This document shows, in pieces, positions 2,159-45,807 of a DNA stretch of 64,000 nucleotides. The DNA is taken from NCBI GenBank assembly GCA_963676725.1, contig OY781463.1, positions 2,786,398 to 2,850,397 on the forward strand. Direction: 5' to 3'. Under the pieces are notes generated by a model. That model was not told where the DNA came from, did not search any database, and was given only the letters and a program-made list of their open reading frames with translations. Made by a program: the position numbers and the translations under genes. This DNA is from Bacteroidales bacterium (GTDB lineage Bacteria; Bacteroidota; Bacteroidia; Bacteroidales; WRLA01). Within the stretch, counting starts at the first letter, position 1; each line of letters opens with the position of its first letter.

Positions 2159-3427
2159 ATGAATAATAAAAAACTAGTGCTACCCTCTTTGCAAATTGTC
2201 GCTGATAGTACGAGACCGCTAAAAACGGGTGAATTGCCTATTAAGCTTCGAATAACCTATCGTCGCAAAAGACGATATTGGACGATCAATGATATGGATG
2301 GCCTGCCTATGAAGACGGATTTTAAAACAGCCAAAGAGTTCCAGGATTTCAGAAAAACTGCACACAGAAAAAAACAGCTAAAGGCTCTTGTGGAATATTT
2401 AGATGATGTTGAAGTGGCTGCTAGAGATTTGGTGAAAAAAATATATGCTGACAAAGGTGAATTTACTTTTGACGATTTCAAAGAAAATTGGATGGCAAAA
2501 CCAAATCTAGCCCAAGACGATGTAATAGCCGCATTAAAGAGTTATTCAGACCAACTTTATCAAGAAGGGCGTATTAGCACGTCTCGCGTCTATAAGAACT
2601 CAATGAAAAGTTTGAAGCGTTTCACAGGAAAGGACAAGCTTAGTTTTAAGGAGATAACGCCAAATTGGCTTCGTGAATACGAGAACTGGATGACTGAGGA
2701 AATAGAGAATAGTATAACTACAGTGGCAATGTATCTTAGGAGTGTAAAGAAAGTTTTCAATGATGAAATAGCTAGCGGGAAGCTTCCACAAAACTTATAC
2801 CCTTTTGGACGTAGAGGATATAAAATGCCCGAATCCAATAATGTTAAAAAGGCAATAACAAAAGAGCAGGTGATTTCTATAATTGAATATAAAACAAGAA
2901 CGACTTCTATGGAGTATTATAGGGATCTATGGGTCTTTTCATATCTGGCAAATGGAATTAACCCCAAAGACATCCTTCACCTAAAATACAAAACAATAAA
3001 CGACGATGAAATTGTATTCCTAAGGGCAAAAAGCAGATTCAGCCGCCCCAAAGAAATACGGATATCACTACATCCTAAGATTATGGAAATAATTGATAAA
3101 TGGGGGAATGCAGAAAAAAGTCCAGATAATTACGTTTTTCCGGAGATCACTAAAGGCATGACACCAGTCGAAGCTTTTAACCGACAAGAGGCAGTAGTAA
3201 AAAGCATGAATCGGTATATGCTACTCATTGAAGGAGCATTAAAAATTGAAAAGCACATAACCACATACACAGCCCGCCATTCAATGGCAACAGTACTAAA
3301 GCGCACGGGGGCATCGGTTGATCAGATTCAGGAATTTGTTGGCCATTCCACTCCACAACAAACACAGAGATACCTAGATTCATTTGATTTAGAAACAAAA
3401 AAAGAAATGTCTAGAAAACTATTTTAA
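2159..3427 (+). CDS. Tyrosine integrase of the island (arm-binding, SAM-like and catalytic domains)
   Basis: PIKLRITYRRKRRY arm-binding N-terminus; TTYTARHSMAT and VGHS..TQRY catalytic motifs. Confidence 0.92.
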   Translation: MNNKKLVLPSLQIVADSTRPLKTGELPIKLRITYRRKRRYWTINDMDGLPMKTDFKTAKEFQDFRKTAHRKKQLKALVEYLDDVEVAARDLVKKIYADKGEFTFDDFKENWMAKPNLAQDDVIAALKSYSDQLYQEGRISTSRVYKNSMKSLKRFTGKDKLSFKEITPNWLREYENWMTEEIENSITTVAMYLRSVKKVFNDEIASGKLPQNLYPFGRRGYKMPESNNVKKAITKEQVISIIEYKTRTTSMEYYRDLWVFSYLANGINPKDILHLKYKTINDDEIVFLRAKSRFSRPKEIRISLHPKIMEIIDKWGNAEKSPDNYVFPEITKGMTPVEAFNRQEAVVKSMNRYMLLIEGALKIEKHITTYTARHSMATVLKRTGASVDQIQEFVGHSTPQQTQRYLDSFDLETKKEMSRKLF

Positions 3428-3440
3428 TAAATCATATAAG

Positions 3441-4748
3441 ATGGACTTACCGGAAATAAATGAACACGAATTGATGGATTATTTCGATAACTATCAATTC
3501 TTCCCTCTCTTTGAAAAGCACTGGATTATAAAACGAGATGAGTTTTACAAAAAGCATGGTTTTAATGCTGAGTTCTCTAACGAGGAACTGCTTTTTTTGT
3601 TTTTAACCCAAATAAATGATGTATTGAAACTTTATGCAGAGGAAATTGAAGAAATCTGGATTGAGGACTATATAAATAGTATATACAGCCCTGTGTACGT
3701 TTCAAATTTCCCTGACACAAGTAAAAAAGACTTATTATTAACTGTTGATGAAGGAGAACTGAACCAGTTTATAAAGAAGAAAAACTACAGCAACAATGTT
3801 GAAGAATTTGTAAAAGAAGTAGAAAATGAGTATCAGGAACAATTTAACTTGGACGTCAAGCCGATTATTTGCAATAGCCATTATTTTAGGAGTTTCGGAT
3901 TGATTAGGGATATGTTCTATAATCCGGATAACGTGATTACGAAGGAGATGCTCACTGAATGGGCGGGTTACCTGACTGAACTGGCCGTATTGGAGGATCA
4001 GGGAGATACGGAATCAGAAACATATCACAAGATTCAAGATGACATTGCCCACTGTTCCTTTCACACCCAACTCAAGATATTGGCAGCTAAAAATGAAATA
4101 TACCAACAATTTCTCCTTGATGAAAGCGGTTTTGATGCAAGAGGAAAAATATCATTCAATACTGATCAGGGGGGTACAATTTCTTTTGATGTTAAAGCTG
4201 AGTTATTAAATTTTGTACAAGAAGCCACTGGTGAGAACGCATTAATAACAACCAGAGACGTGAAGCCTAGAAGAGAGCAAATGTTTTCTAAGATGAAGGA
4301 AGCGTATGAAGTGAATGAAGACAATAATGACATACCCCCCGATACCATAAAGTCATTAAAAGACCCAAATGTCCTGTTAGATCCTAAAATCTTTGATCAT
4401 ATTGTCGAAAAACTTATTAAAGCAAAACGTCTTAGTAATAAATATGGAAAAATAAAGGTCATAGATTTTGATCTTGGTGAATTAGCCAATCTTATTAAAA
4501 CTTTTAATAATTTAGGGTACTTAAATCCAAAAATTAATTCTCGGAATAAAACGGGCAGAAAGAACCCCGCTGCTTTGACAAACGAGGAAGTGCTCAGTAT
4601 TGCCAAAATGGACTTTAATGAGGAATTACGCATAGATACAGTTAAAAGAAGTAGAGCACTTATCTGCAACGATGACAATCCAAAAGATTGGGTTACGGGA
4701 AAACTAGGCTTAATGAAATGGTCATCACTAGAGCCCTTATTACACTAA
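3441..4748 (+). CDS. Hypothetical protein of the island backbone
   Basis: 435-aa ORF directly after the integrase. Confidence 0.75.
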   Translation: MDLPEINEHELMDYFDNYQFFPLFEKHWIIKRDEFYKKHGFNAEFSNEELLFLFLTQINDVLKLYAEEIEEIWIEDYINSIYSPVYVSNFPDTSKKDLLLTVDEGELNQFIKKKNYSNNVEEFVKEVENEYQEQFNLDVKPIICNSHYFRSFGLIRDMFYNPDNVITKEMLTEWAGYLTELAVLEDQGDTESETYHKIQDDIAHCSFHTQLKILAAKNEIYQQFLLDESGFDARGKISFNTDQGGTISFDVKAELLNFVQEATGENALITTRDVKPRREQMFSKMKEAYEVNEDNNDIPPDTIKSLKDPNVLLDPKIFDHIVEKLIKAKRLSNKYGKIKVIDFDLGELANLIKTFNNLGYLNPKINSRNKTGRKNPAALTNEEVLSIAKMDFNEELRIDTVKRSRALICNDDNPKDWVTGKLGLMKWSSLEPLLH

Positions 4749-4818
4749 TTACACTATTAATTAGTGTATTTAGTGTACTCATAATCAGTAGTTTATGTTA
4801 ATTTGTTTTATATTTTTG
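4739..4818 (+). promoter_or_regulatory. Inverted TACACTA repeats and -7 promoter box upstream of HTH genes
   Basis: TACACTA x2 then TAGTGTA x2; TATTTTTG at 4811-4818. Confidence 0.5.
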
Positions 4819-4847
4819 CAGCAAGAAATTAATAAAAATAAATCAAC

Positions 4848-5186
4848 ATGAACGAAAGCATTATTTTATCCCAAATCACCTTAGATGCTCTTGCCGAAAA
4901 AATAGCATCAAAACTGACTGACCTGATTGGGCAGCCTAAGAAATTGCCTGAGCGCATTAATTCCGAAGAAGCGGCAAAAATCATTGGCTGCAAAGAGAGT
5001 TACCTAGCTCAACTGAGGCATAAGGGAGAAATCCCTTTTTATAAAAACGAAGGGGGACGGATTATTTCTTATAAGCGTAGTGAGATGGAAGCCTACAGAG
5101 ATAGCAAACGTGTTGCTACAAAATCAGAAAGAGTAGAAGCAGCTCATCTTGCACAGGTGCGCAAATCAATTATTCATTCAAATTAA
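4848..5186 (+). CDS. Excisionase-like helix-turn-helix protein
   Basis: INSEEAAKIIGCKESYLAQLRHKGEIPFYK pattern. Confidence 0.85.
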   Translation: MNESIILSQITLDALAEKIASKLTDLIGQPKKLPERINSEEAAKIIGCKESYLAQLRHKGEIPFYKNEGGRIISYKRSEMEAYRDSKRVATKSERVEAAHLAQVRKSIIHSN

Positions 5187-5543
5187 ATGATGATGCGCAA
5201 TCCAAGACAATTAGACGAAGCTATTGAGCTTATCTTTAAAAGATTCAAGAACGACAGCGAAAATAACAGATCGCTTCGCCTTAGGGTCAACGAACTCGAA
5301 GATCAGGTAAAAAAACTATCTGATGTAATCCAATTGGAACAAAAGATATTGTTGCAGCAAAAACAACATCTTACTCTTGAAGAGTTCTGTCTTTATACAG
5401 ACTATAAGAAGGAATACGTATACAAACTTTCATCCGAAGGGAAACTGCCCGGACTAATTTCAGGGAAAGGCGAAAAAATGATGTTCTTACGGAAAACTGT
5501 GGATAAATGGCTTTGTAGAAAAAACAAAAGGAGGGGTCTATGA
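5187..5543 (+). CDS. Excisionase-like helix-turn-helix protein
   Basis: LTLEEFCLYTDYKKEYVYKLSSEGKLP pattern. Confidence 0.85.
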   Translation: MMMRNPRQLDEAIELIFKRFKNDSENNRSLRLRVNELEDQVKKLSDVIQLEQKILLQQKQHLTLEEFCLYTDYKKEYVYKLSSEGKLPGLISGKGEKMMFLRKTVDKWLCRKNKRRGL

Positions 5544-5824
5544 AAAACACCCTCCTATTGTATCTGTCTTGTAGCAAGGACAAAGATACTAAACCATATA
5601 TTCTCAGGCAAGTAAAATCAGAATATTTAATAAATTTCTATGAAAAAGGGCTGGAAGCCTTCAAAAAGGGATTCCCCTTCTTTTCTGATAGAAATATTGA
5701 GTTGCTCTTCAGTAATTGGTTTAATAAAACCTACCTAAAACTTTCAAAAAGCAAGAAAAACCTTATCTGGAAGATCAGCTACACTACTCCTGTTCTCAAA
5801 GTCAAAGAAAGGAGGGGGATATGA
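5540..5824 (+). CDS. Hypothetical protein
   Basis: Overlapping ATGA start/stop coupling on both sides. Confidence 0.6.
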   Translation: MKNTLLLYLSCSKDKDTKPYILRQVKSEYLINFYEKGLEAFKKGFPFFSDRNIELLFSNWFNKTYLKLSKSKKNLIWKISYTTPVLKVKERRGI

Positions 5825-7236
5825 GCCAGCTTACTGAAGCAAAAGCCGATGGCATTGGCCTTGATGATTTGAAGAGCTTAAAAAATCCGGCATTGGCGAA
5901 AAGCAATAAACAGGGAATAAGGAACCCTTTTCCATTAGATGCTTTTCCCATCGCTATACAGCAAATTGTGAACGAACTAAATCGAACACTTAATTTTCCT
6001 GTGGATTTTACAACTTCTGCGATACTTTTTACACTATCTGTTGCTATTGGAAACACTTTTCATGTTGAACTCAAGCCGGGGTACATACAAAATGCTGTTA
6101 TTTACCTGGCTTTGGTGGCAAGAAGGGGCTTTAATAAAAGTCACCCCTTAAGTTTCATGCTAAAGCCCTTAGAAAAGAAAGACAGTGATGCGTTCAATAA
6201 ATACAAAAAGGAAAAACAGGAAGTAGAACACATCCTTAGCCTTTCCAAAGCAGATCGTGAACAACAGGGCTATGATGATACAAAAAATCCGGCTCCTGTT
6301 TGGAATCAATACTTAGTCACTGATTTCACTCAAGAAGCCTTGATTAAAGTGCATAGTATTAACCTAAGGGGCATCGGTGTTTATTTTGATGAACTGATCG
6401 GATGGATTGCTAATTTCACGCGATATAATACGGGTTCTCAGGAGCAATTCTGGCTAAGTATATGGAGTGGAAAATCCGTTCGCGTAAACAGGGTAAACAG
6501 TGAGCCGGAGTTCTTGGAAAACCCTTTCATTTCTGTAGCCGGCACAATACAGCCGGAAGTGCTGGTGGACATCGCCAAAAACAGGAAAGATAATGGGTTT
6601 ATGGACAGGATTCTTTGTGCAATTCGTGATGACATGGATAAAGAACCCCTGAATGACAAGCTGCTGGATCCATCGGTAATGGAAAACTGGGAGAACATCA
6701 TAGAAAACTTACTCTCACAATCAGGAATGCCGGATACGGAGATTGGCAAAACCCTGCCCCGAATACTTAAATTTTCGCCTGATGCAAAAACACTGTTCTT
6801 TGAACATCAGAAACATTTAACGGATTTATCCAATAATCCGGCAAATGAAACCATGGCAGGGATATACCCTAAGATGGAGATGTACACAATCCGTTTTGCT
6901 TTGATCATGGAGCTATGCAAATATGCTTGTGGTGAAATCAGTGCGCCCGAATGTATCAGTATCGACTCTGTAAGGTCTGCCATTAAGTTGTCGGATTATT
7001 TTCAGCAGAACGCTGAATATGTCAATACTGAATTGCTCGAATCAAACCCTGCGGAAAAGCTTAACAAGAACAGCAGGGCTTTTTATGAGGCATTGGATGG
7101 TGTTTGCCAGACAAAGCAAGCGATCAAAAAAGGGAATGAACTGGGCATAGCAGAGCGAACGGTTAAGCGCTTGTTAAACGATAAAAAATTGTTTACAAAA
7201 ATCCAGCATGGAACTTACGAGAAAAATTATTTATAA
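5821..7236 (+). CDS. DUF3987-like protein (replication module of integrative elements)
   Basis: FPLDAFP, degenerate P-loop RRGFNKS, DEL..W, GTIQP, NGFMDR motifs. Confidence 0.8.
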   Translation: MSQLTEAKADGIGLDDLKSLKNPALAKSNKQGIRNPFPLDAFPIAIQQIVNELNRTLNFPVDFTTSAILFTLSVAIGNTFHVELKPGYIQNAVIYLALVARRGFNKSHPLSFMLKPLEKKDSDAFNKYKKEKQEVEHILSLSKADREQQGYDDTKNPAPVWNQYLVTDFTQEALIKVHSINLRGIGVYFDELIGWIANFTRYNTGSQEQFWLSIWSGKSVRVNRVNSEPEFLENPFISVAGTIQPEVLVDIAKNRKDNGFMDRILCAIRDDMDKEPLNDKLLDPSVMENWENIIENLLSQSGMPDTEIGKTLPRILKFSPDAKTLFFEHQKHLTDLSNNPANETMAGIYPKMEMYTIRFALIMELCKYACGEISAPECISIDSVRSAIKLSDYFQQNAEYVNTELLESNPAEKLNKNSRAFYEALDGVCQTKQAIKKGNELGIAERTVKRLLNDKKLFTKIQHGTYEKNYL

Positions 7237-7244
7237 TTAAGCCC

Positions 7245-7458
7245 TTGGCATTATTGGCATTCTTGGCACTTTGGGGGTTAATAAACTAAATAACAGAGTG
7301 TTAATAGTGCCAAATAATTGATGTTTAAATGGCACTTTTGGCACTCTGATAGTAAATTCGTGCCAAAAGTGCCAAAAAAGTGCCAACTTAAAAAAATTAT
7401 ATCTTACTAAAATTCAATGCATTATAGTCAATAGTGTCAATAGTGCCAAGAATGCCAC
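7245..7458. repeat. Iteron-like TGGCAC/GTGCCA cluster, putative origin
   Basis: About 12 TGGCA(C/T) or GTGCCA-like units in opposed groups with AT-rich spacers. Confidence 0.7.
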
Positions 7459-7475
7459 ACCCTAAAATTACAATA

Positions 7476-8639
7476 ATGAACTACAGGTATCAATTAGATA
7501 GAACAAGTAAAAAAACAGTCTGCCCAAAATGTGGGAAAAGACGCTTTGTCCGCTATATAGATATGCAGGAAAATACCTATCTACCGGAAAAATATGGACG
7601 GTGTGATAGACAGGACAATTGTGGTTATCACCTGAACCCATATTCGGACAATTATGGAAAAGACAAGGCAGGATATGAAGCCATAATAATCCCCTCTCCC
7701 ATCGTAATGGAAGATGTTCCGGTTTCTTTTATGGATGATACGACTGCTATGAAAAGCTTGAAGAATTATGGACAGAACTATTTTATCCTTTACCTCAAAA
7801 GCCTATTCCCTGACGATCTTGTGGAGCAATTGGTTCAGGCTTATGAAATAGGAACATCAAAGCATTGGGAGGGCTCTACTGTTTTCTGGCAAAAGGATGT
7901 TTCAGGAAAGTATCGAACAGGGAAAATTATGCTCTATGACCCATTAACAGGGAAAAGGGTGAAAAAGCCCTTCAATCATATATCATGGGCTCATTCTGCT
8001 ATGAAGCTGAACGATTTTCATTTGAAGCAATGCTATTTTGGGGAGCACCTTTTGGGTAAAGAGCCCGAAAAGCCTATTGCTATTGTTGAATCGGAGAAAA
8101 CAGCCATTATTTCTTCTGCGTATTATCCGGAATATATTTGGCTAGGAACTGGTGGTACGAATGGTTGCCGTTGGCATCAATATTCCGTAGGCATGGTGCT
8201 TAAAAACAGGGATGTTTTTCTGTTTCCTGATCTGTCGATTGGCGGAAAAGCTTTTATCGACTGGAAAGAAAAAGCCGAAAAGCTTTCCAGGTTAATCCCT
8301 TCATCTAATTTCTATGTTTCCGAATTGCTTGAAGCAAAGGCTACCGATGATATGCGTAAAAATGGTGCTGATATAGCCGATTATCTGGTGGGTTTTGATG
8401 TGCGTACATTTAATGTACCTAGCGAGCTTAGCGAGACTGATACTTCTTCTGATGCGGCTTCAAGTAGTGAGGAGATTATCGTTGTGCCAAAGCATAAGAG
8501 GACTAAGGACAAGCAAACGAACATCCAAAAGGAAAAGCCAAAACCGACAAATAAATCGGATAGGGAAATCGGGAAACAAACCCGATTGTTCAAATACAAT
8601 CCGGGTGTATTTACACAGAGGTTTTCTCTGATGGAGTAG
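7476..8639 (+). CDS. Primase-like protein (Zn ribbon plus DUF6371/Toprim-like domain)
   Basis: CPKCGK, YGRCDR..CGYH, VESEKTA, LFPD, DIADY; ATG 7476 preferred over GTG 7434. Confidence 0.8.
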   Translation: MNYRYQLDRTSKKTVCPKCGKRRFVRYIDMQENTYLPEKYGRCDRQDNCGYHLNPYSDNYGKDKAGYEAIIIPSPIVMEDVPVSFMDDTTAMKSLKNYGQNYFILYLKSLFPDDLVEQLVQAYEIGTSKHWEGSTVFWQKDVSGKYRTGKIMLYDPLTGKRVKKPFNHISWAHSAMKLNDFHLKQCYFGEHLLGKEPEKPIAIVESEKTAIISSAYYPEYIWLGTGGTNGCRWHQYSVGMVLKNRDVFLFPDLSIGGKAFIDWKEKAEKLSRLIPSSNFYVSELLEAKATDDMRKNGADIADYLVGFDVRTFNVPSELSETDTSSDAASSSEEIIVVPKHKRTKDKQTNIQKEKPKPTNKSDREIGKQTRLFKYNPGVFTQRFSLME

Positions 8640-8685
8640 TGAGATAATTATGATCATAAAATACGAATAGTTAAAACAATGTACA

Positions 8686-8943
8686 ATGGAACAAATTATT
8701 GAAAGAAAAAAATCAATGCGGCAGGAAGAAGTGAGCCAAGCGATCCTTTTCAGGGAAAGTATTCGTGCAATTATTCCAAAAGTTGATCTTGAAGACACAT
8801 CAATTTCGCTGGAGGAAATGTTTTTTGAATGGGTACAGTGCGAAACAGGATACGATCGTTTTGAGCGAAGCCGAACCGTGGAGGCATACCGCGCAATGAA
8901 ACTACTTCTTGATGAAATCTCAAAGGATTATATGCTGCACTAG
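8686..8943 (+). CDS. Hypothetical protein
   Basis: 85-aa ORF followed by a terminator. Confidence 0.6.
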   Translation: MEQIIERKKSMRQEEVSQAILFRESIRAIIPKVDLEDTSISLEEMFFEWVQCETGYDRFERSRTVEAYRAMKLLLDEISKDYMLH

Positions 8944-10025: not shown

Positions 10026-11483
10026 ATGAACAATACATCAAAGGCCATCCTATTCTTAAACAGGATAGAATTGGGCAATAAAAAGTGCATTAAACTGTAT
10101 TTCTGGAGTAATGAGTTAATATTGAAGCGTATAAAGGCCAATGGCTGGATTTGCTTTGATGTACAGCATAGCATTTATTATGTTGAGGAACAGGCAAATA
10201 CATTAGGGCTGCTTACAGAATTATTTGAAGATATTGCCCTTGTTCGTACTAAATATCTGGATAAGATACCCGGAACAGCACCAAAAAATAAAGAAGCAGT
10301 ATTGGGTACAGCTTTTGATACCTATCGTTTGAAGAAGCGAGAGTATTTGCCCGATTTAAAGATACTTACCGTAGAGTTAGACGGGAAAGTGTATTTGGGG
10401 ATCAAGGCATATTTCCCTAAAGAGATTTATTTAAAACTATCCAATGAAAAATTTATTCGATGGCACAACAAAGAAAAGATTTGGTATTTTGAGAATAGCT
10501 CAAGGAATTTTAAAGAAATATTTATATGTTTATCAGAGTTTTACACAATAAAATTAAGTGCAACGGTAGAAAATAAGGATTCACAGATCAGGCAGATGTT
10601 GTGGGAACAATCATATGAGAAAGGCAAATATTTTAAATCAGTGCCTATAGAATTTATTGAATATATGAGCCTGCACAATTATGCCGAGAACAGCATACAG
10701 ATTTATTATAATATGGTATTTCACTTTATCAATTCCTTTCGCCATAAAAGTCTTCAGGAGATCCATAGATTCAGTGAAAAAGAAATCGACCGTTATCATT
10801 TGGGTTTGACCGAAAGAAGAGCCTTATCTGCATCAACGATCAACCAATCGGTTAATGCCATAAAGCTCTATTATAAGGTAATAGCAGGAACACAGATACG
10901 GCTCAATGAAGTAAGTAGGCCCAAAATGCCTAAGATATTACCAAAAGTTCACAGTCAGGAAGATATGCAAAAGCTTTTGAATAGTATTGAAAATTTGAAG
11001 CACAAAGCCATAATCCTTTTGATGTATTCGTCCGGTATTCGCATCAGCGAACTGATTAGAATGGAGAAAAGCGATATAAATTTTGAGCGTAGGCTTGTTT
11101 TTGTGCAAAAGTCCAAAGGATATAAGGAAAGATATACGGTACTGTCGGATAATGCAGCAATGATTCTTCGTGAATACATAGCACAATACAAACCGGAAAA
11201 ATATTTGTTTGAGGGGCAGTATGGGCATAAATACACCGATACCAGTGTGCGCAAGATATTAGCAAACAATGAAATACGGGCAGGAATCAGTAAAAAAGGC
11301 GGACCACATGTTCTACGGCATTCCTTTGCTACCCATTTATTAGAGCAAGGTGTTGACCTACGTTATATCCAGGAGTTACTAGGCCATAATAGCAGTAAAA
11401 CCACAGAGATTTATACGCACGTAAGCACCAAAGATTTTGGGAGAATTAAAAGCCCCGGTGATTTTATTAAAATTTCATTGTAA
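10026..11483 (+). CDS. Integron-like tyrosine recombinase with long N-terminal extension and no IntI-specific insertion
   Basis: SGIRISE, KSKGYKER, HVLRHSFATHLLE, LLGH..TTEIYTHV; SASTINQSVNAI SAM-like region; adjacent to the cassette array. Confidence 0.9.
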   Translation: MNNTSKAILFLNRIELGNKKCIKLYFWSNELILKRIKANGWICFDVQHSIYYVEEQANTLGLLTELFEDIALVRTKYLDKIPGTAPKNKEAVLGTAFDTYRLKKREYLPDLKILTVELDGKVYLGIKAYFPKEIYLKLSNEKFIRWHNKEKIWYFENSSRNFKEIFICLSEFYTIKLSATVENKDSQIRQMLWEQSYEKGKYFKSVPIEFIEYMSLHNYAENSIQIYYNMVFHFINSFRHKSLQEIHRFSEKEIDRYHLGLTERRALSASTINQSVNAIKLYYKVIAGTQIRLNEVSRPKMPKILPKVHSQEDMQKLLNSIENLKHKAIILLMYSSGIRISELIRMEKSDINFERRLVFVQKSKGYKERYTVLSDNAAMILREYIAQYKPEKYLFEGQYGHKYTDTSVRKILANNEIRAGISKKGGPHVLRHSFATHLLEQGVDLRYIQELLGHNSSKTTEIYTHVSTKDFGRIKSPGDFIKISL

Positions 11484-12758: not shown

Positions 12759-12893
12759 GTGCCCTAACAAAAAATATAGTGCATTTGGCAGATAGTGCTT
12801 ATAATGAAGATTGGAGCAATAAAAAAATTAGTAGTAAATTGAAAATTTGGAGCGTAAAATGCCAAACGCCCCATATTCAAACCGTTATGCCCG
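12759..12893 (+). repeat. attC-like site 1
   Basis: GTGCCCTAAC..GCATTTGGCA//TGCCAAACGC..GTTATGCCCG. Confidence 0.88.
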
Positions 12894-13297
12894 ATTTTCT
12901 TTGCTGCGGTGTAGCGTTTTGGAAGGAAATTTTTGCGCAATTGTTCTTTGATACTTAAAAACCTGCAATCGCTTACAGCACTGGCCCACGCTTCGGAAGC
13001 AGGTTTTGCAGGACAAAAAAATTCGAGTTCCAATCCTAATTTTGTGATGAAACACGCAAAAATATTTTGATTTGCTATTGTACATTTGGGCTTTTTATTA
13101 ACTTTGGCTCTGGCCAGCGCATTTCAGCCAGCGCACAATGCCGACGCTATGTCCGGCGCACATTAAGAACCGGGCATAACCAAAGCTATTCCCCATAAGG
13201 GGTTTAATCGTTAAAACAAAGATTATGCAAGTGAAAATTATTAGTAGTAGATTGATAATTAGTGGTTTTGGAGTCCCTTACGTGGGATAGCTAGTCC
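12884..13297 (+). repeat. ORF-less cassette, copy 1
   Basis: 414-bp unit repeated at 13298 and 33292. Confidence 0.88.
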
Positions 13298-13307
13298 GTT
13301 ATGCCCG
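13171..13307 (+). repeat. attC-like site 2
   Basis: CGGGCATAAC..CATAAGGG//CCCTTACG..GTTATGCCCG. Confidence 0.88.
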
Positions 13308-13709
13308 ATTTTCTTTGCTGCGGTGTAGCGTTTTGGAAGGAAATTTTTGCGCAATTGTTCTTTGATACTTAAAAACCTGCAATCGCTTACAGCACTGGCC
13401 CACGCTTCGGAAGCAGGTTTTGCAGGACAAAAAAATTCGAGTTCCAATCCTAATTTTGTGATGAAACACGCAAAAATATTTTGATTTGCTATTGTACATT
13501 TGGGCTTTTTATTAACTTTGGCTCTGGCCTGCGCAGGCAGCAAACGCACAATGCCGACGCTATGTCCGGCGCACATTAGAACCGGGCATAACCAAAGCTA
13601 TTCCCCATAAGGGGTTTAATCGTTAAAACAAAGATTATGCAAGTGAAAATTATTAGTAGTAGATTGATAATTTGTGGTTTTGAAGTCCCTTACGTGGGAT
13701 AGCTGGAAC
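13298..13709 (+). repeat. ORF-less cassette, copy 2
   Basis: Tandem near-identical copy with boundaries exactly at GTT. Confidence 0.88.
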
Positions 13710-13719
13710 GTTGTGTGCC
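13583..13719 (+). repeat. attC-like site 3
   Basis: CGGGCATAAC..GTTGTGTGCC with the same arms as site 2. Confidence 0.88.
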
Positions 13720-13742
13720 ATATTAAGAGACCATGAATCACT

Positions 13743-14594: not shown

Positions 14595-15281
14595 ATGATA
14601 AATAAATTATATAATTTCCTTTCAAAGCCCTTCATAGTGATAGTCGTAATGATTGTTGCACCAATATTGTCTATTGCCGATAGAAATTTTGGGTACTTTT
14701 TTGGTCTTTTTATTGCTCTATTCTTGCTGTGGAAAAGTGGTTGGAATTGGGCGAAATTTGGGTTTGGGCAAAAAGTAAATCTCAGAACTATATTGAAAGG
14801 CTTATTACTTGCAATAGCTATATTTCTCATAATCGATATATGTATACAGCCATTTTTGGAAATATACTTTGGAAAGATTGATTTGAGTTCAATAGAGGAA
14901 ATAAGAGGGGATTTTGCCAGTTTTCTGCCTCTGTTTTTGATCATGTGGTTATTTGCCGCTTTTGGAGAAGAATTCTTGTTTAGTGGTTATTACATGAAAC
15001 ATCTCGCTGAATTATTTGGAGATTCTAACAAATCTTGGCTTATCTCAGCTATCGTACTTTCAGTTTACTTTGGAATTTCTCATAACTATCAAGGAACTTC
15101 TGGAATGATTGCCGTGGGATTAGCAAGTACAATATTCTTTTTTACATTTTACAAGTACAGAACTAATCTTGCTTTACTCGTATTTACACACGGTTTTTAT
15201 GATACGATTGGATTAACTCTAATCTACCTGAACAAGGACCGAATCTTCTATGATTGGGCCTTTCAACTTATAAATAAATGA
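14595..15281 (+). CDS. Cassette gene: CPBP/CAAX-type intramembrane protease
   Basis: GEEFLF, FGISH and HGFYD motifs; hydrophobic. Confidence 0.88.
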   Translation: MINKLYNFLSKPFIVIVVMIVAPILSIADRNFGYFFGLFIALFLLWKSGWNWAKFGFGQKVNLRTILKGLLLAIAIFLIIDICIQPFLEIYFGKIDLSSIEEIRGDFASFLPLFLIMWLFAAFGEEFLFSGYYMKHLAELFGDSNKSWLISAIVLSVYFGISHNYQGTSGMIAVGLASTIFFFTFYKYRTNLALLVFTHGFYDTIGLTLIYLNKDRIFYDWAFQLINK

Positions 15282-15284
15282 AAC

Positions 15285-16181
15285 GCCACACAATCGAGTA
15301 GGCTGCCGCTAGGCAGATTTGCCTAGCGGAGAACCTCTCACACCACTGTACGTACGGGTCTCGTATACAGCGGTTCGATACATATCGGCTTAAAGCTCTT
15401 TTCACCTTTAAACTTCTGCTCTAATTTAAAATAGGGCTAGTAAACTCGAGGTTTAGACCTCCCTATCGAATTTTAAGCAATGTATCGTTCAGTCCTTCAT
15501 CAACTTGTGAGTCCTCTGTCTTGTCCTATTCTTTCAGAGGGGACAGCTCGTTACTGTTGACTACTATGACTTCTGCTGACTTCTTGGCTTACAGAGAACA
15601 CGTCTGTTCCAAGACCTCCCCAGGTAAGAACCCTATCTTTCTACTTATGCCTGACACATCTACTAAGCAAGGATTATTGGTCAAGGGCTTTGCAAAGATG
15701 TGCTTGCTTACCCTCCCTGTTTAGCCTCATATGTGCTTTCTGTTTAGTTTACCCTGAGGTGCTCGAAGGGTCAGTACAAGTATTTGCAGTCCTGCTTCCT
15801 TCAGTGAATACCTCACGATAAACCACCTTGCAGCTTGCTAATCGGCTTTACCAACTTGCCGATAAGGGACTTTCACCCTCGAGATATTGTTCACCCACTT
15901 TTTGACTCTGAAAAATAAATTTGTATTTTTGACATTTTTCTAAAGCTTTCGGTGGGTGTGCTTAAGCTCATGCTGGGCACACACATGCTGTCATAAAACA
16001 TAAGGGCTACAGAGGTTTACGGGACTTCAGCGCATTTAATCAAGCCCGCCAAATCTTGCGATTTGACGCGTTGATTAAAAAGTTTAAATTTGTGTCTAAT
16101 CGCAACATTTGACTATGTGCAAACTTGATAGGGAAGCATTTCAAATCCCTTACGTTTCATACAGCAGAACCGTTGTGGGTA
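15285..16181 (+). repeat. attC-like site 5, interrupted by an intron
   Basis: GCCACACA|AC rejoined; CATAAGGG//CCCTTACG..GTTGTGGGTA. Confidence 0.85.
15293..15982 (-). ncRNA. ORF-less group IIC intron
   Basis: Starts GTGTGCCC, ends CTACTCGAT; domain V GAACCGCTGTATACG..CGTACAGTGGTGT; no RT ORF. Confidence 0.88.
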
Positions 16182-16201
16182 ATGCAAAAGCCTCGTGCAA
16201 A

Positions 16202-16591
16202 ATGACAGAGATAGAAATTAATATAAATAAATACGCTCAAAACAAGCTGACTGATTCCGAGATAATGGATTGGTTTGACCAGTTTGATTTGATAGGTCAA
16301 AAAGAGATTCGAGATAAGTTGATTATGTTCATGCAACAATCCCATCCAACTGACGAAATGATTTCTATAGCGATTCAGTCTGCACCGATTAAAGACACAA
16401 TGACACCTGTGGTACTTTTCAAAACCCAGAATTTTAAAATAGCGATTAACAAAATTGAGAAATTACCTGATTCTGAGTTGAGAAAATCATTTATAACCAT
16501 GTTGAGTATTTTCAAAACAGCAGATACACGTCGTAGAGAAACTGATTGTAAGAATGGATGTACTCATTTTTGGCATAATATAAAGGATTAG
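16202..16591 (+). CDS. Cassette gene: DUF5958-like protein
   Basis: ATG after the GTT core; C-terminal CKNGCTHFWHN. Confidence 0.75.
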   Translation: MTEIEININKYAQNKLTDSEIMDWFDQFDLIGQKEIRDKLIMFMQQSHPTDEMISIAIQSAPIKDTMTPVVLFKTQNFKIAINKIEKLPDSELRKSFITMLSIFKTADTRRRETDCKNGCTHFWHNIKD

Positions 16592-16830
16592 TGACTATGA
16601 AGTATAAATGGATTGCTTTATTATTTATTTCTGTTCTATTGACTGGCTGTTTTGGGTTATTTGATAGTGGAAGCAAACGGATTACTGGAAAATACATTGT
16701 AGTTTGGATTGACCTTCCAAGAAATCAAGGAATAGGCGAAGAAATTGAAGGAAGTCCAGGAAGTTCGATAGGTTTAGTCCCTGAGTATGTGTTTGCGGTT
16801 GGACACAATGAGGATTATATAATTGCAAAG
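16591..16830 (+). pseudogene. DUF3997-like lipoprotein truncated by IS1595
   Basis: LTGC lipobox; ORF runs into the IS end after DYIIAK. Confidence 0.75.
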
Positions 16831-17912
16831 GGTTATGTTGCAGTATAATGGAGAATTTTTATTACCTTTACGGTTATAAATACTGTTACTATGAATATAG
16901 ATGATTTACTTAAGAACCTGACTTCAGAAGAGAAAGAACAGTTATACACACTCCTAAAAAAGGACATTGGCATAACACCTCAATTGGATAAAATTAAATT
17001 CGAACTTAATCAGGGTCAAAAGATAGTATGTCCACACTGTCTTAGTAGCGACATTTATGGCCATGGCACATATAAAGGTAGAAAACGTTATAAATGCAAG
17101 CAATGCAAAAAAACATTTAATGATTTCACCGGAACTGCTGTTTCAGGCATTAAGAAAGTAGAAAAGTTTCAAGAGTATCTAGAACTTACGATTGAAAATT
17201 TGTCCATAAGAAAAGCCGCTAAAAAACTAGGGGTTAGCACCAAGACGATATTTGATTGGCGGCATAAACTATTGTCATCACTACAAACAATGAATGGAAT
17301 GGCATTATCAGGAATAGTTGAATGTGATGATAAACAGTTAGATATAAATGAAAAAGGCAAAAAGGGCTTGAATAGAAAACCTTATAAAAGGTCTAGTGAT
17401 AGAAAGAAAAAGCGAGGCATAAGTAATGACAAGATATCAATTATAGTGGCCACGGATCGAAAAGACAACCCTACTATGCGGATTGCAAAAGTAGGAAGGA
17501 TTGATGTAGAGAGTATTGAAAAAACCATTGGTGGTTTCATTGATCACAGCAATGTTCTTTGCTCTGATTCTCATCCATCCATAATATCTTGGGCAGGTAA
17601 AAAAGAACTCGAACACCACACATTCATTGCATCAAAACGACATGTAAAAAATAAATGTTATCATGTACAACATGTAAACTCTCTTGACAATTTATTTGAA
17701 AGATGGTTAAAGCCTTTTTATGGTGTAGCGACTAAATATCTGCAGCAATATCTAAATTGGTTTGTGTTTCATGAAAAAACAAAAAAGTCGTCAAACCCAA
17801 TGGCAGTCTTCACTAAAGCAATAATGTCAAACACGAATGCTATACGCGATTTTAGGTCAATCGAGAAAAAACACTTGGAATTAGATATTCCACTTTATTC
17901 TACAACATAACC
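16831..17912 (+). mobile_element. IS1595-family insertion sequence
   Basis: Imperfect terminal IRs GGTTATGTTG../..CAACATAACC; no target duplication. Confidence 0.88.
16891..17910 (+). CDS. IS1595-family transposase
   Basis: CPHC..CKQC Zn ribbon, HTH, VECDD, CSDS, HVQHVN. Confidence 0.92.
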   Translation: MNIDDLLKNLTSEEKEQLYTLLKKDIGITPQLDKIKFELNQGQKIVCPHCLSSDIYGHGTYKGRKRYKCKQCKKTFNDFTGTAVSGIKKVEKFQEYLELTIENLSIRKAAKKLGVSTKTIFDWRHKLLSSLQTMNGMALSGIVECDDKQLDINEKGKKGLNRKPYKRSSDRKKKRGISNDKISIIVATDRKDNPTMRIAKVGRIDVESIEKTIGGFIDHSNVLCSDSHPSIISWAGKKELEHHTFIASKRHVKNKCYHVQHVNSLDNLFERWLKPFYGVATKYLQQYLNWFVFHEKTKKSSNPMAVFTKAIMSNTNAIRDFRSIEKKHLELDIPLYSTT

Positions 17913-17966
17913 TTTTGATTTTGAGAGCCTCAAACTCTTGTATCAATCCGTAATAATTTAAACATC

Positions 17967-24561: not shown

Positions 24562-26622
24562 ATCGAGTAGGCTGCCGCTAGGCAGATTTGCCTAGCGGAG
24601 AACACTTCGATAAAAACTCAGTGCATCGCCTCTCACACCACTGTACCCTTCGACAAGCTCAGGATAAACCAAGCGGGTCTCGTATACAGCGGTTCATTAA
24701 GATGTGGGGCGATTTTTTCGTACATTTCGAGCAGGGACACATAGCCTCTTTTTCGTAGCCTTTCCAAGGTGATTGTTGTGCCCAGTATAGGGCTTTGAGC
24801 TACTGCCCTGCCTCCCATACGCGTCCATGCATATGCCTGCCCTTGGTTTACACCTAAACGTACAAGGTTTTTCCTTTTCCGTTCAGGCTTTTTCCAGTGG
24901 TGCCATATGCAATACCTCAGGCGGTTCCTTAGCCATCCATCAATGCTCTTGAGCTTTCCGGATATTTTTGCCATACGGAAGTACCCTAAGGCCACCTTGT
25001 GCCTCTATTATTTTCCGAATGCGTTCATCGAAAGTCATAGGGGTAGTTTTACGGGTGATCACTTTGAGCTTTTGCTTTAAGGATTGCCACCGCTTTTTCC
25101 CAACAACCATTTGGTATTTCCCTTTCTCACCTTTAATGTAAGTTGGGACAAACCCAAATCCGAGTATTGTTAGCTGCACAGGTTTTCGGATTCCGCTTTT
25201 TTCCCTGTTGATCGGTAACTTCAACTTTTGTTTCAGAAATAAATAGGTGTTGTTTCCTATCCTTCGGGCTGCCGACTTGCTTTTTGTGTAAATACTAAAG
25301 TCATCGGCATAGCGTATGAACCGAAGCCCTTGTCTTTTTAGTTCCTTGTCGAGCTCATGTAGCATGATGTTGGACAATAAAGGACTTTGCTGCCCTGCAT
25401 TCCGGCTCGCTCGTTAAAAATATCCACTGGATATTTTCTTAACACTCGGACCTCCTGTGGCACGCCCTTACGTCTTTTGGTCAGTTTGCCGTTGATCAAA
25501 ATCGGCGCCCTGAGCCATTTTCGTATAAGCCGTAGGGTGAGCGGGCATTTTACTCTACTGTAGAGCAGTTGAAGCAAAATACAGTGGTCCACTTCATCGA
25601 AGAACCCTCTTAGGTCAATATCGACTATGTGGCTGTATCCGTCATTAATGTGCTCCTGTGCTTTCAATACAGCTTGTTGGGCATTCCTGTTTGGCCTAAA
25701 ACCATAACTTTGGTCTTCAAAGCTTAGTTCAAATTTTGCCGCCAGTACCTGCCCTGTTGCTTGTTGCAATAGTCGGTCTGTTGCTGTTGGTATGCCTAGT
25801 AGGCGTGTTTTTCCATTGCTCTTTGGTATTTCTACCCCCAAAATAGCTTGTGGCAGGTATTTCCCGAGTCGTAGTGATGTCTCTAGAATATCACGCTGAT
25901 CGGACAGGTGTTTGTACAGGAAGCTTACCTGCATCCCATCTATACCTGCCGCGCCTTTGTTCTTTACAACTTGCCTTAAGGCTCTCATTACGTTTCTTCG
26001 GTCAATTACTTGCTCAATCATTTTTGGGTGTTAAAAAAAAATAATGTTTCCCTGTTCCGCTTATAAAAGGGCTACGGCCATTAAGCTGATCCCTAATGCA
26101 TTTGGAACATCTTAATGTTTAGTCCTTTATTGCTTTGTGAGACCTCCGTATATCTATTACGGCTCGTTGCCGGCAACTACTATGACTTCTGCTGACTTCT
26201 TGGCTTACAGAGAACACGTCTGTTCCAAGACCTCCCCAGGCGCTGCAGTGAGCACGGCCGAACTGTAAGAACCCTATCTTTCTACTTATGCCTGACACAT
26301 CTACTAAGCAAGGATTATTGGTCAGGGGCTTTGCAAAGATGTGCTTGCTTACCCTCCCTGTTTAGCCTCATATGTGCTTTCTGTTTAGTTTACCCTGAGG
26401 TGCTCGAAGGGTCAGTACAAGTATTTGCGGTCCTGCTTCCTTCAGTGAATACCTCACGATAAACCACCTTGCAGCTTGCTAATCGGCTTCACCAAATGCC
26501 GATAAGGGACTTTCACCCTCGAGATATTGTTCACCCACTTTTTGGCTCTGAAAAATAAATTTGTATTTTTGACATTTTTCTAAAGCTTTCGGTGGGTGTG
26601 CTTAAGCTCATGCTGGGCACAC
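24562..26622 (-). mobile_element. Group IIC intron, degenerate
   Basis: Same termini as 15293-15982; fragmented RT; insertions in domain V. Confidence 0.9.
24696..26021 (-). pseudogene. ltrA: Group II intron RT/maturase in three frames (3' end approximate)
   Basis: NKGAAGIDG, RLLGIPT, GVPQ, RYADD and maturase X motifs split over ORFs 25338-26021, 24940-25377, 24633-24995. Confidence 0.88.
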
Positions 26623-31606: not shown

Positions 31607-33289
31607 CAGACTGTCTAAAAACCCCAAAACTTCCACCCAAAATTGTTGATAACATTCCGACTTATCAACAGCTATAAATGCTTGTTTATTAGTATATTCA
31701 TAGCATGAAATACATGATAGGAAAAGATCGGAACCAAGTATCAATTTTCCCCATTTCTTTGGATGAATCTATCCATAAAGATCATGAGGTGCGGATTATT
31801 GATCTTTTTGTAGACAGCCTTGAATTATTAGAAATGGGCTTTCGTGTAGATTTTATGGAGAACGGAAGACCTGCTTATCATCCCAAAGACCTTCTAAAAC
31901 TCTTTATTTATGGCTACCTGAACAGAACACGCTCCTCACGTGAGCTCGAAAAAGAATGCACACGGAACATCGAAGTGATTTGGTTGCTCAAAGGCCTAAA
32001 GCCCGACCATAATACGATTTCCAACTTCCGCCGCGACCATTCCAAAGCCATAAAGAATGTGTTTCGTGCCACGGTATGCATAGCCAAGAACTTAGAACTA
32101 ATCGGCGGGAAACTGCTTGCCGGAGACAGCACCAAACTCCGGGCACAGAATTCCAAGAAGGCCAATTATAATGCAAAAAAGATTGAGCGCCATTTGACCT
32201 ATATCGACAACAAACTTGCTACTTACCAGGAGCAGTTGGCCAAAGCTGACGGGGACAATCAAGCGCTGATACAGCAAGAGATTGAGAAACACAAAGAGCG
32301 CAAGCAATTCTACCATGATATAGAACACCAATTAGAAGAATCCGGCGAAACCCAGGTATCCACAAGCGATCCGGAAAGCAGGCAAATGATCACACGCAAC
32401 AATATCACCGAAGTAGCCTACAATGTACAAACAACGGTCGATTCAGCCCATATGATCCCCATCGATTATAAAGTGACCAATGAAAACGACAGCAAAGCAA
32501 TGGGCGATATGCTCCACCGCAGTAAAAGCATCATTGGCCACAATAATTTTACCGCCCTCTACGATAAAGGCTACCATACAGGCAGCGAGTTTCAAACCGC
32601 CCACGATTTAGGCATAAATGTACTGGTTGCCATTCCTAAAGTAGCGGCCAATGCCCCCGATCCTAACTACAATGTAGAACACTTTCGATATGATAAAGAC
32701 AAGGACTGTTATCATTGTCCCCAAGGCCATGAGATGCACACAACAGGTAAATGGCACCAGGCGAAAACCTATCAATTTAAGCGTTATACAACTCGCCAAT
32801 GCCTGAGCTGTCCGGTAAAAGACAAATGCTCTAAGGCTAAATACGGCAAGGCAATACAACGATCTGAATATCAAGAATATATAAATACAAATAAGGAAAA
32901 CATAGAGAAAAACCTGGATTACTACCGCCGACGACAGGCAATTGTGGAACACCCATACGGCACCATCAAGCGTCAATGGGGATTTAGCTACATAATGACC
33001 AAACGCAGTAAACAACGCGCCTCGGCGGATGTAGGATTTATATTTATTGCTTATAATTTACGTCGTATTATGAATATCCTTGGCATTCATGTATTTAAGC
33101 AATACCTCATTGCTTTATCTGTTCTAATAGCCTTCATTTTGGCTTCCATATATGCGTTTTGCCGAAGGATAAAAAGCATTGCTGCCCAAAGGTATCGAAA
33201 AATAGATGCACTTAGAACGCAAATATTTGCTAAATTTATGCCGTATTTAGGTACAATTTAAAAGAGAACGGAGGTTTTAAGACAGACTG
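31607..33289 (+). mobile_element. IS1182-family element, copy 1 (1683 bp)
   Basis: IRs CAGACTGTCTAAAAACC / GGTTTTAAGACAGACTG; CCGT duplication. Confidence 0.92.
31705..33261 (+). CDS. IS1182-family transposase
   Basis: GRPAYHP, SSRELE, PDHNTISNFR, DKGY, YRRRQAIVEHPYGTIK. Confidence 0.93.
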   Translation: MKYMIGKDRNQVSIFPISLDESIHKDHEVRIIDLFVDSLELLEMGFRVDFMENGRPAYHPKDLLKLFIYGYLNRTRSSRELEKECTRNIEVIWLLKGLKPDHNTISNFRRDHSKAIKNVFRATVCIAKNLELIGGKLLAGDSTKLRAQNSKKANYNAKKIERHLTYIDNKLATYQEQLAKADGDNQALIQQEIEKHKERKQFYHDIEHQLEESGETQVSTSDPESRQMITRNNITEVAYNVQTTVDSAHMIPIDYKVTNENDSKAMGDMLHRSKSIIGHNNFTALYDKGYHTGSEFQTAHDLGINVLVAIPKVAANAPDPNYNVEHFRYDKDKDCYHCPQGHEMHTTGKWHQAKTYQFKRYTTRQCLSCPVKDKCSKAKYGKAIQRSEYQEYINTNKENIEKNLDYYRRRQAIVEHPYGTIKRQWGFSYIMTKRSKQRASADVGFIFIAYNLRRIMNILGIHVFKQYLIALSVLIAFILASIYAFCRRIKSIAAQRYRKIDALRTQIFAKFMPYLGTI

Positions 33290-33291
33290 CC

Positions 33292-33705
33292 GTTATGCCC
33301 GATTTTCTTTGCTGCGGTGTAGCTTTTTTGAAGGAAATTTTTGCGCAATTGTTCTTTGATACTTAAAAACCTGCAATTGCTTACAGCACTGGCCCACGCT
33401 TCGGAAGCAGGTTTTGCAGGATAAAAAAATTCGAGTTTCAATCCTGATTTTGTGATGAAACACGCAAAAATATTTTGATTTGCTATTGTACATTTGGCCT
33501 TTTTATTAACTTTGGCTCTGGCCTGCGCATTTCAGCCAGCGCACAATGCCGACGCTATGTCCGACGCACATTAAGAACCGGGCATAACCAAAGCTATTCC
33601 CCATAAGGGGTTTAATCGTTAAAACAAAGATTATGCAAGTGAAAATTATTATTAATAGATTGATAATTAGTGGTTTTGGAGTCCCTTACGTGGGATAGCT
33701 GGAAC
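33292..33705 (+). repeat. ORF-less cassette, copy 3, including attC-like site 8 (33579-33715)
   Basis: Near-identical to 12884-13297. Confidence 0.88.
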
Positions 33706-33754
33706 GTTAGCACCAATGTAGCCAAAACGATAGCACAACTTAAAAATTAGAGAT

Positions 33755-35000: not shown

Positions 35001-36683
35001 CAGACTGTCTAAAAACCCCAAAACTTTCCCTCAAAATTGTTGATAACATTCCGACTTATCAACAGCTATAAATGCTTATTTATTAGTATATTCATAGCAT
35101 GAAATACATGATAGGAAAAGATCGAAACCAAGTATCAATTTTCCCCATTTCTTTGGATGAATCTATCCATAAAGATCATGAGGTGCGGATTATTGATCTT
35201 TTTGTAGACAGCCTTGAATTATCAGAAATGGGCTTTCGTGTAGATTTTGTGGAGAACGGAAGACCTGCTTATCATCCCAAAGACCTTCTAAAACTCTTTA
35301 TTTATGGCTACCTGAACAGAACACGCTCCTCACGTGAGCTCGAAAAAGAATGCACACGGAACATCGAAGTGATTTGGTTGCTTAAAGGCCTAAAGCCCGA
35401 CCATAATACCATTTCCAACTTCCGTCGCGACCATTCCAAAGCCATAAAGAATGTGTTTCGTGCCACGGTATGCATAGCCAAGAACTTAGAACTAATCGGC
35501 GGGAAACTGCTTGCCGGAGACAGCACCAAACTCCGGGCACAGAATTCCAAGAAGACCAATTATAATGCAAAAAAGATTGAGCGCCATTTGACCTATATCG
35601 ACAACAAACTTGCTACCTACCAGGAGCAGTTGGCCGAAGCTGATGGGGACAATCAAGCGCTGATACAGCAAGAGATTGAGAAACACAAAGAGCGCAAGCA
35701 ATTCTACCATGATATAGAACACCAATTAGAAGAATCCGGCGAAACCCAGGTATCCACAAGCGATCCGGAAAGCAGGCAAATGATCACCCGCAACAATATC
35801 ACCGAAGTAGCCTACAATGTACAAACAACGGTCGATTCAGCCCATATGATCCCCATCGATTATAAAGTGACCAATGAAAACGACAGCAAAGCAATGGGCG
35901 ATATGCTCCACCGCAGTAAAAGCATCATTGGCCACAATAATTTTACCGCCCTCTACGATAAAGGCTACCATACTGGCAGCGAGTTTCAAACCGCCCACGA
36001 TTTAGGTATAAATGTACTGGTTGCCATTCCTAAAGTAGCGGCCAATGCCCCCGATCCTCACTACAATGTAGAACACTTTCGATATGATAAAGACAAGGAC
36101 TGTTATCATTGTCCGCAAGGCCATGAGATGCACACAACAGGCAAATGGCATCAGGCGAAAACCTATCAATTTAAGCGTTATACAAGCCGCCAATGCCTAG
36201 GCTGTCCGGTAAAAGATAAATGCTCTAAGGCTAAATACGGCAAGGCAATACAACGATCTGAATATCAAGAGCATATAAATACAAATAAGGAAAACATAGA
36301 GAAAAACCTGGATTACTACCGCCGACGACAGGCAATTGTGGAACACCCATACGGCACCATCAAGCGACAATGGGGATTTAGCTACATAATGACCAAACGC
36401 AGCAAACAACGCGCCTCGGCGGATGTAGGATTTATATTTATTGCTTATAATTTACGTCGAATTATGAATATTCTTGGCATTCATGTATTTAAGCAATACC
36501 TTATTGCTTTATCTGTTCAAATAGCCTTTGTTTTGGCTTCCAGACACGTATTTTGCCGAAGGATAAAAAGCATTGCTGCCCAAAGGTATCGAAAAACAAA
36601 TGCCCTTAGAACGCAAATATTTGCTAAATTTATGCCGTATTTCGGTACAATTTAAAAGAGAACGGAGGTTTTAAGACAGACTG
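35001..36683 (+). mobile_element. IS1182-family element, copy 2 (1683 bp)
   Basis: Same IRs; CCGT at 34997-35000 and 36684-36687. Confidence 0.92.
35099..36655 (+). CDS. IS1182-family transposase
   Basis: Near-identical to 31705-33261. Confidence 0.93.
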   Translation: MKYMIGKDRNQVSIFPISLDESIHKDHEVRIIDLFVDSLELSEMGFRVDFVENGRPAYHPKDLLKLFIYGYLNRTRSSRELEKECTRNIEVIWLLKGLKPDHNTISNFRRDHSKAIKNVFRATVCIAKNLELIGGKLLAGDSTKLRAQNSKKTNYNAKKIERHLTYIDNKLATYQEQLAEADGDNQALIQQEIEKHKERKQFYHDIEHQLEESGETQVSTSDPESRQMITRNNITEVAYNVQTTVDSAHMIPIDYKVTNENDSKAMGDMLHRSKSIIGHNNFTALYDKGYHTGSEFQTAHDLGINVLVAIPKVAANAPDPHYNVEHFRYDKDKDCYHCPQGHEMHTTGKWHQAKTYQFKRYTSRQCLGCPVKDKCSKAKYGKAIQRSEYQEHINTNKENIEKNLDYYRRRQAIVEHPYGTIKRQWGFSYIMTKRSKQRASADVGFIFIAYNLRRIMNILGIHVFKQYLIALSVQIAFVLASRHVFCRRIKSIAAQRYRKTNALRTQIFAKFMPYFGTI

Positions 36684-45342: not shown

Positions 45343-45350
45343 AACAAAAG

Positions 45351-45788: not shown

Positions 45789-45807
45789 TCAATAAATTAT
45801 TTATATT

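Follow-up and report, generated by a model that had tools for sequence, protein, structure and literature searches.

The 690-nt intron analysed here carries no open reading frame (ORF), and we are reasonably confident that it represents a Bacteroidota-wide ORF-less lineage of group IIC introns that lies antisense in the R'' box of attC-like sites, likely borrows the reverse transcriptase (RT) of RT-bearing sister introns and likely exchanges its outer domains with them. The window is a 64,000-nt stretch of a Bacteroidales genome whose assembly consists of a single 5.19-Mb contig (96% complete). Coordinates without a prefix are window positions, and G000:C1 denotes the contig of this same host genome.

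An ORF-less group IIC intron with uninterrupted domains V and VI

The intron occupies the minus strand of positions 15293..15982 and was delimited by its GTGTG start, its CTCGAT end, Rfam matches and its fold; on that strand it is bounded by ...gcATGT and Tgtgtgg. The D1-D4-3 model of Rfam (domain I) matched with 93 bits (cut-off 32) and D1-D4-1 (domain II–III region) with 44.5 bits (cut-off 35), whereas Intron_gpII (domains V–VI), the scan proposed in the initial annotation, reached 38.9 bits (E = 9e-5), slightly below its cut-off of 40. Taken together, the Rfam scan supports that annotation's assignment of the element to class C without an ORF, and the core is able to fold (z = −4.7 for the intron RNA against 20 shuffles). 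The hallmarks of group IIC are all present, namely a GUGYG start, an AY end, six domains, a class C domain I and a short domain V with a CGC triad.

Class C introns are defined by an EBS1/IBS1 pairing of 3–4 bp together with EBS3/IBS3, an upstream hairpin taking the place of IBS2 (PMC7923331). In the present intron, the EBS1 loop GCACAUC (15697..15703, −) offers ACAU, complementary to the IBS1 ATGT, and a bottom-strand hairpin lies upstream of the insertion point. The A of EBS3 pairs with the IBS3 T; we take it to lie in the coordination-loop segment at 15724..15732 (−), a placement made by homology.

Domain V with its CGC triad (15342..15374, −) and domain VI plus the 3′ end (15293..15339, −), both located by Rfam, are uninterrupted. 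Domain IV (15377..15486, −), drawn from alignment and covariation, measures 110 nt and consists of a basal stem, DIVa (15417-15479) and a DIVb hairpin, and the longest ORF anywhere in the intron is 26 aa, which confirms the original description of a 690-nt intron with intact domains V and VI and an ORF-free domain IV. The hairpin present instead of the ORF ends in a near-invariant loop, GGUGAAAAGAGC (15395..15406, −; placed by alignment).

The intron lies in the bottom strand of an attC-like site

Removal of the intron restores the sequence ACACA^AC and confirms the earlier placement of the insertion at bottom-strand ATGT/T in the AAC box. The left part of this R'' box (15288..15292, +), the complement of which gives the IBS3 T, lies 6 nt past the stop codon of the upstream cassette gene; the remainder of the site (15983..16178, +), the bottom strand of which ends in the IBS1 ATGT, brings the empty site to 201 nt. 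After intron removal, ACACA^AC pairs with the R' box GTTGTGG (16172-16178, +) 201 nt away. The antisense R'' insertion at TTGT/T that characterizes IIC-attC introns is thus found here as ATGT/T, at the A^AC position. The site also has the hallmarks of attC, with R''/R' and L''/L' inverted repeats that directly follow a stop codon and recur along an array of co-oriented genes, and an asymmetric 4–5-nt spacer is visible in attC-like sites.

The intron is antisense within a run of co-oriented genes behind a 485-aa tyrosine recombinase (10026..11483, +; domain matches to SAM_4 and Phage_integrase), which heads the cassette array. By domain match, the gene upstream of the site (14595..15281, +) belongs to the Rce1-like CAAX protease family and the gene downstream (16193..16591, +) to DUF5958. 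The recombinase scores 181 bits against TIGR02249, below the cut-off of 265, and lacks the IntI-specific insertion of ~35–40 residues seen in IntI4 (2A3V); on both counts the host site falls outside the definition of an IntI integron or CALIN. A second recombinase copy in the genome heads a second array.

A profile built from 27 empty attC-like sites of other genomes detected 35 sites in the host genome, 10 of them in this array, all on the array strand, and gave no match against the reversed genome. Each of the six intron 5′ ends present in the host falls at a profile-detected site. Empty sites are mostly uniform in length (128–134 nt in 29 of 42). The window site folds to −33.9 kcal/mol as bottom strand versus −28.4 kcal/mol as top strand. 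Bottom/top asymmetry is an attC trait by definition (PMC7923331), and the attC-like folding proposed at the outset is supported by 25 empty sites, 20 of which fold better as bottom strand, with 49 G-T-type mismatches in the bottom strand versus 18 in the top. The bottom strand was likewise the better folder in 11 of the 18 host-genome sites, out of 35, whose ends could be called automatically (29 versus 11 mismatches).

Other elements occupy the same surroundings. Two near-identical elements with a 518-aa DDE transposase (DUF772) lie at attC-like R' ends (31705-33261 and 35099-36655), and ORFs of equal length are present in other arrays. A non-coding module of ~410 nt is repeated between attC-like ends, twice in tandem (12882-13724, 33290-33720), and an IS1595-family element (16820-17960) splits the cassette gene at 16597-16848. 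An intact group II intron of another class, with an AGC triad and a 417-aa RT (37402-39346, +), has inserted between L' and R' in the top strand of a site of this attC-like family, and at loci L214 and L213 its relatives occupy a similar position. Upstream of the array, a second tyrosine integrase accompanied by HTH_17, DUF3987 and DUF6371 genes (2159-8943) suggests an integrative element carrying the array. At 44602-57082, repeated C-terminal fragments, which from their repeated motif we take to be Rhs-like, alternate with small genes and have no Pfam match. A type IX secretion tail is present in the host sequence and, like the relatives recovered, points to Bacteroidota.

The RT-bearing sisters in the host genome are broken

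An RT-bearing sister intron, recognized by BLAST and its reading frames, occupies another attC-like site at 24562..26622 (−). The 690-nt intron aligns to it with 428/465 identities over query positions 1–440 and a single 25-nt gap; identity falls in domain III, is absent from domain IV and resumes in domains V/VI. The two introns share the TGT/T insertion position. Hairpin inserts are found at the end of domain I, within the ORF and in domains V and VI of the sister, the RT of which lies in three pieces (25338-26021, 24940-25377 and 24633-24995). The near-identity over ~420 nt of 5′ sequence and the common site reported initially therefore hold, but the RT frame of this neighbour is broken.

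The genome contains a second ORF-less copy (G000:C1:4894006-4894694), which is 99.1% identical, differs at 6 positions and occupies a different attC-like site. Two RT-bearing copies share domains I–II and V–VI with the ORF-less intron; both have broken RT frames and hairpin inserts, and the remaining class C pieces are fragments. A search across the host genome for an intact class C RT, the protein donor that the initial annotation had suggested looking for, returned none; the only whole RT (37998-39251) is of another class. Internally deleted derivatives of the RT intron, which retain its first 197 nt and its 3′ end, lie in separate attC-like sites at G000:C1:708792-709414 and 713902-714488. 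At G000:C1:4219143 and 4803378, two 5′-truncated RT intron fragments begin a short way 3′ of tRNA-like genes, preceded by similar sequence.

In domain Id of the window copy, a 26-nt REP-like hairpin (15745..15770, −), recognized by alignment, has replaced 2 nt of the conserved motif CUGACGAAC. All four host-genome copies, two ORF-less and two RT-bearing, have this hairpin, which belongs to a repeat family with 142 matches in the genome. Among four sequencing runs examined, in which sequence depth does not equal copy number, X5 and X10 gave contigs with this ORF-free domain IV but lacking the domain I hairpin. The insert therefore appears to be strain-specific, and this copy may be impaired in splicing. 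With no intact class C RT in its genome and an insert in its domain I, the 690-nt copy is probably stranded here.

Small palindromes recur at fixed places in introns (the domain V bulge, domain VI, domain Id and an RT motif), some of them nested. Identical palindromes are inserted at different intron sites, and other palindromes behave likewise in other genera. Palindrome-bearing introns include 24562-26622 in the window, those of G000:C1 near 709414, 714488, 716439, 2444471, 4179855, 4219996 and 4820670, and those of loci L074, L104, L031 and L087. The palindromes may be tolerated or spread through conversion.

Domains III–IV belong to a phylum-wide ORF-less lineage

Judged by sequence affinity, domains III–IV of the window intron come from a separate, phylum-wide ORF-less lineage and not from the neighbouring RT intron. 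They have no counterpart in the RT-bearing sister and are 69–78% identical to those of other families of the same order. Searching with the end of domain IV plus domain V, we found at least 128 loci, at least 123 of them in Bacteroidota; among the matches listed are seven named Bacteroidota orders, 13 loci without an order, 3 Balneolota and 2 contigs of bins from other phyla. The distribution is sporadic, with exact pattern matches in 3 of 401 genomes of the phylum, the host included. Viral contigs yielded no match to the pattern, and phage records matched the flanks only.

These comparisons bear on whether the intron is a recent internal deletion of the RT intron at 24562-26622, an origin that would account for the nearly identical ~420 nt of 5′ sequence and domains V/VI and that we regard as extremely improbable. 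Domains III–IV are unmatched in that RT intron, contain no ORF remnant and are better matched by ORF-less introns of other orders, and the true deletion derivatives near C1:708792 and 713902 look different. A simple deletion is refuted by the DIVb hairpin, which is common to at least 128 loci. The descent from the neighbouring RT intron implied by the first description is thus wrong for domains III–IV, which match the ORF-less lineage of other genomes.

From 153 loose matches, we recovered 44 complete ORF-less introns of 583–934 nt, with no ORF above 103 aa; the rest ran into a contig or locus end, were truncated or escaped the 5′ pattern, and a few 3′ ends were probably miscalled. The same 5′ pattern missed the 5′ junctions of three reference IIC-attC introns, recovering their 3′ junctions only. 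TGT precedes 40 of the 44 introns and T follows 39. The junction is NTGT/T in 36 of the 44 (TTGT/T in 13, GTGT/T in 10, ATGT/T in 9 and CTGT/T in 4). An RT lies within 1330 nt upstream in one of the 153 matches, where the two introns form a tandem. Introns joined head to tail within a single site were seen at loci L133 and L025 and in run X6. At L133 an RT intron is followed by an ORF-less copy, run X6 contains a head-to-tail joint of the intron, and ORF-less twins are also among the pairs found.

We aligned 54 of 73 non-redundant domain IV sequences, leaving out 19 long ones that mostly bear inserts. Under the hand-drawn structure 87.7% of cells are paired, versus 37–48% when the structure is slid, and 25 of 29 pairs show changes on both sides. 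Unaided, RNAalifold returned three of the four helices (the basal stem, the inner DIVa stem and the DIVb hairpin) and missed the outer DIVa stem. By eye, DIVa of the ORF-less introns resembles DIVa of RT-bearing relatives. The ORF-replacing hairpin is capped by the nearly invariant loop GGUGHAAWGAGC, which is absent from all 17 complete RT-bearing introns. Since the loop was part of the search pattern, some of its invariance follows from the search itself; the loop also occurs in loci found by BLAST before the pattern search. No partner within domain IV was detected for its variable base (top mutual information 0.17, versus 0.8–1.2 for real pairs).

Outer domains track the co-resident RT intron

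We compared introns in 11 genomes that carry both ORF-less and RT-bearing forms and that are not independent samples. In 8 of the 11, domains I–II of the ORF-less intron have the co-resident RT intron as their nearest match (88–99% identity; 0.85 expected by chance); the same holds for domain III in 2 and for DIVa in 4, and in all 11 DIVa is closer to an ORF-less intron of a foreign genome than to the co-resident RT intron. Domain I is not shared in three genomes. Identity falls near the J2/3 block, and domains V–VI match the co-resident RT intron in several genomes. In the window intron, the conserved J2/3–domain III entry block lies at 15561..15583 (−), directly before the drop in identity to the RT intron, and is a likely swap point. 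On 35-row trees, the ORF-less label changes 13 times for domains I–II and 4 times for DIVa together with the end of domain III (mean after shuffling 10.7); the domain IV tree, with 123 columns, has weak support. A single origin of the ORF-free module with repeated exchange of scaffolds best explains the different affinities of domains I–II and DIVa and the label changes on the trees, so that repeated module swapping between ORF-less and RT introns is likely.

Such patterns might also arise at the DNA level, through gene conversion, between the conserved blocks, of RT introns already present in attC-like sites or through the travel of cassettes, without retrohoming in trans. This account would accommodate several observations. 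The four host copies, two ORF-less and two RT-bearing, have the domain I insert in common and display single-base variants in shuffled combinations, the outer domains of ORF-less introns resemble those of the RT intron in the same genome, and the host genome has no intact donor. We nevertheless consider it improbable. Covariation across 54 distinct domain IVs implies selection on the RNA, several genomes, G405 and G414 among them, hold 2–4 near-identical ORF-less copies with domains V/VI unlike those of the local RT intron, and the head-to-tail insertions at L133, L025 and run X6 fit reverse splicing.

Likely mobility in trans

Mobilization of ORF-less introns in trans has been assayed for TeI3 (PMC2882425). 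Of the corresponding signs, multiple copies at different sites are found in the host genome and in others, and a related intact protein is not found in the host genome. Five genomes hold ORF-less copies, 97–100% identical, at different sites, and 4 of the five have an intact cognate RT. Among the 34 genomes bearing ORF-less introns, many of them drafts, a cognate RT (at least 55% identity) is present in 13, or in 14 counting one at 44%, and any RT in 19; the RT introns from those genomes use the same TGT/T sites. Setting intact ORF-less introns against cognate RT gave 11/14 versus 8/17 genomes, which is not significant (Fisher p = 0.14). Because multiple copies occupy new sites and intact RT-bearing sisters exist, mobilization in trans is likely for the family. 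The movement in trans first claimed for this intron is hence likely for its family, given the copies in 5 genomes, but this genome contains no intact donor.

A motif of the form TTTG-N19-TATTTTTG in domain I of the window copy (15901..15931, +), with consensus spacing, is predicted to be an outward promoter facing the next cassette. A promoter of this kind, Pout, is known for IIC-attC introns (PMC3001079). The full motif occurs in 4 of 40 ORF-less introns, in domain I only, and −7 boxes in 6 of 40 (3.3 expected), counts that speak against a general outward promoter in the ORF-less family.

The motif in the window copy and its parallel with Pout could instead be taken as signs of a domesticated, protein-independent lineage, which would supply cassettes with an outward promoter or act as a HYER-like DNA-cleaving ribozyme, its loop binding a host factor. 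Genomes that contain ORF-less copies and in which no cognate RT was found, and the description of ORF-less IIC ribozymes that cut single-stranded DNA (10.1101/2024.08.31.610620), point the same way. We judge domestication very unlikely: two of the four introns with the full motif are the host-genome copies, the lineage is sporadic (the 3 of 401 genomes with exact matches), DIVa, the protein-binding arm, is retained, and many copies are decayed or truncated.

Relation to known systems

In RT phylogenies, 20 class C RTs of Bacteroidota group together, and three IIC-attC RTs of integrons constitute a separate clade (each 100/100); in a quick tree these three fall among further class C introns from plasmids. 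The comparison with the IIC-attC clade envisaged at the start thus gives the cognate RTs a clade of their own, not joined to IIC-attC, but the deepest branches have no firm order in the careful 25-row tree, and the AU test does not reject grouping the two sets (p = 0.065). The intron appears to work like an IIC-attC intron, whether or not it belongs to the proteobacterial clade. Introns of the IIC-attC type (S.ma.I2 type; PMC3001079, PMC7923331) have the same class C ribozyme, antisense orientation to cassettes, bottom-strand R'' target and TGT/T junction, and a promoter-like motif lies in domain I of the window copy as well. Unlike them, the family described here has no ORF and leaves the −4 base free, its cognate RTs form a separate Bacteroidota clade, and the host recombinase lacks the IntI insertion.

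TeI3 of Thermosynechococcus elongatus (PMC2882425) is likewise ORF-less, has kept DIVa, has multiplied, is moved by the protein of a sister and has a remodelled domain IV. It is described in one genome, with ORF remnants and EBS-defined sites, whereas the Bacteroidota lineage is spread over seven orders, lacks any ORF remnant, inserts at hairpins and apparently exchanges scaffolds. HYERs (10.1101/2024.08.31.610620), which we compared by description only, are also ORF-less class C elements of ~600–700 nt and cut single-stranded DNA. The rAID-1 clusters of Bacteroidales, defined by a 5′ XerD-like recombinase more than 44% identical to BF9343_RS08045 and by immunity cargo (10.1101/471110), show the same layout of a XerD-like recombinase, co-directional genes and integron-like intergenic repeats. 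The likeness rests on this layout, the cargo here being mixed (hydrolases, GNAT, methyltransferases), and the available portion of the rAID-1 description mentions no introns.

Our literature search found no description of the ORF-less domain IV family, its loop or the swapping, and the accessible parts of PMC12584367, PMC8919778, PMC12350094, PMC3733652 and PMC4424553 do not describe the family; Simon 2008, Leon and Roy 2009 and the HYER tables may list members. ORF-less IIC introns and attC targeting were known already; in the literature searched, neither the phylum-wide module nor the apparent exchange of scaffolds was found.

Discussion

We propose that the retained DIVa of the ORF-less intron would bind the protein of an RT-bearing sister, and that the resulting ribonucleoprotein particle would insert just past the folded bottom strand, in class C fashion. 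At two conserved blocks, J2/3 and domain V, crossing over or template switching by the RT would place the ORF-less module on a local scaffold, an exchange that head-to-tail pairs may assist.

Tentatively, this scheme can be extended to a reading that we consider possible rather than probable as a whole. The unit of inheritance would be the ~200-nt domain III–IV module, an old, phylum-wide parasite that recombines into the local RT intron and takes its scaffold, sites and protein from it. Capture would proceed through the retained DIVa and a dedicated invariant loop, as in a SINE-like or defective-interfering lineage, and the host would be a second, separately evolved attC-homing clade on the non-canonical integron-like arrays of Bacteroidota.

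In the ORF-less lineage that we favour, with a borrowed RT and exchanged outer domains, the ORF-free domain IV design is kept across seven orders with covariation, and the outer domains follow the RT intron of the same genome. The family, if this is confirmed, would provide a natural model of continued compatibility between introns that lack a protein and the splicing protein that they share, as well as a compact natural set of IIC ribozymes carrying a new, conserved RNA motif. It would also be independent evidence that Bacteroidota arrays expose folded bottom strands despite a recombinase without the IntI insertion.
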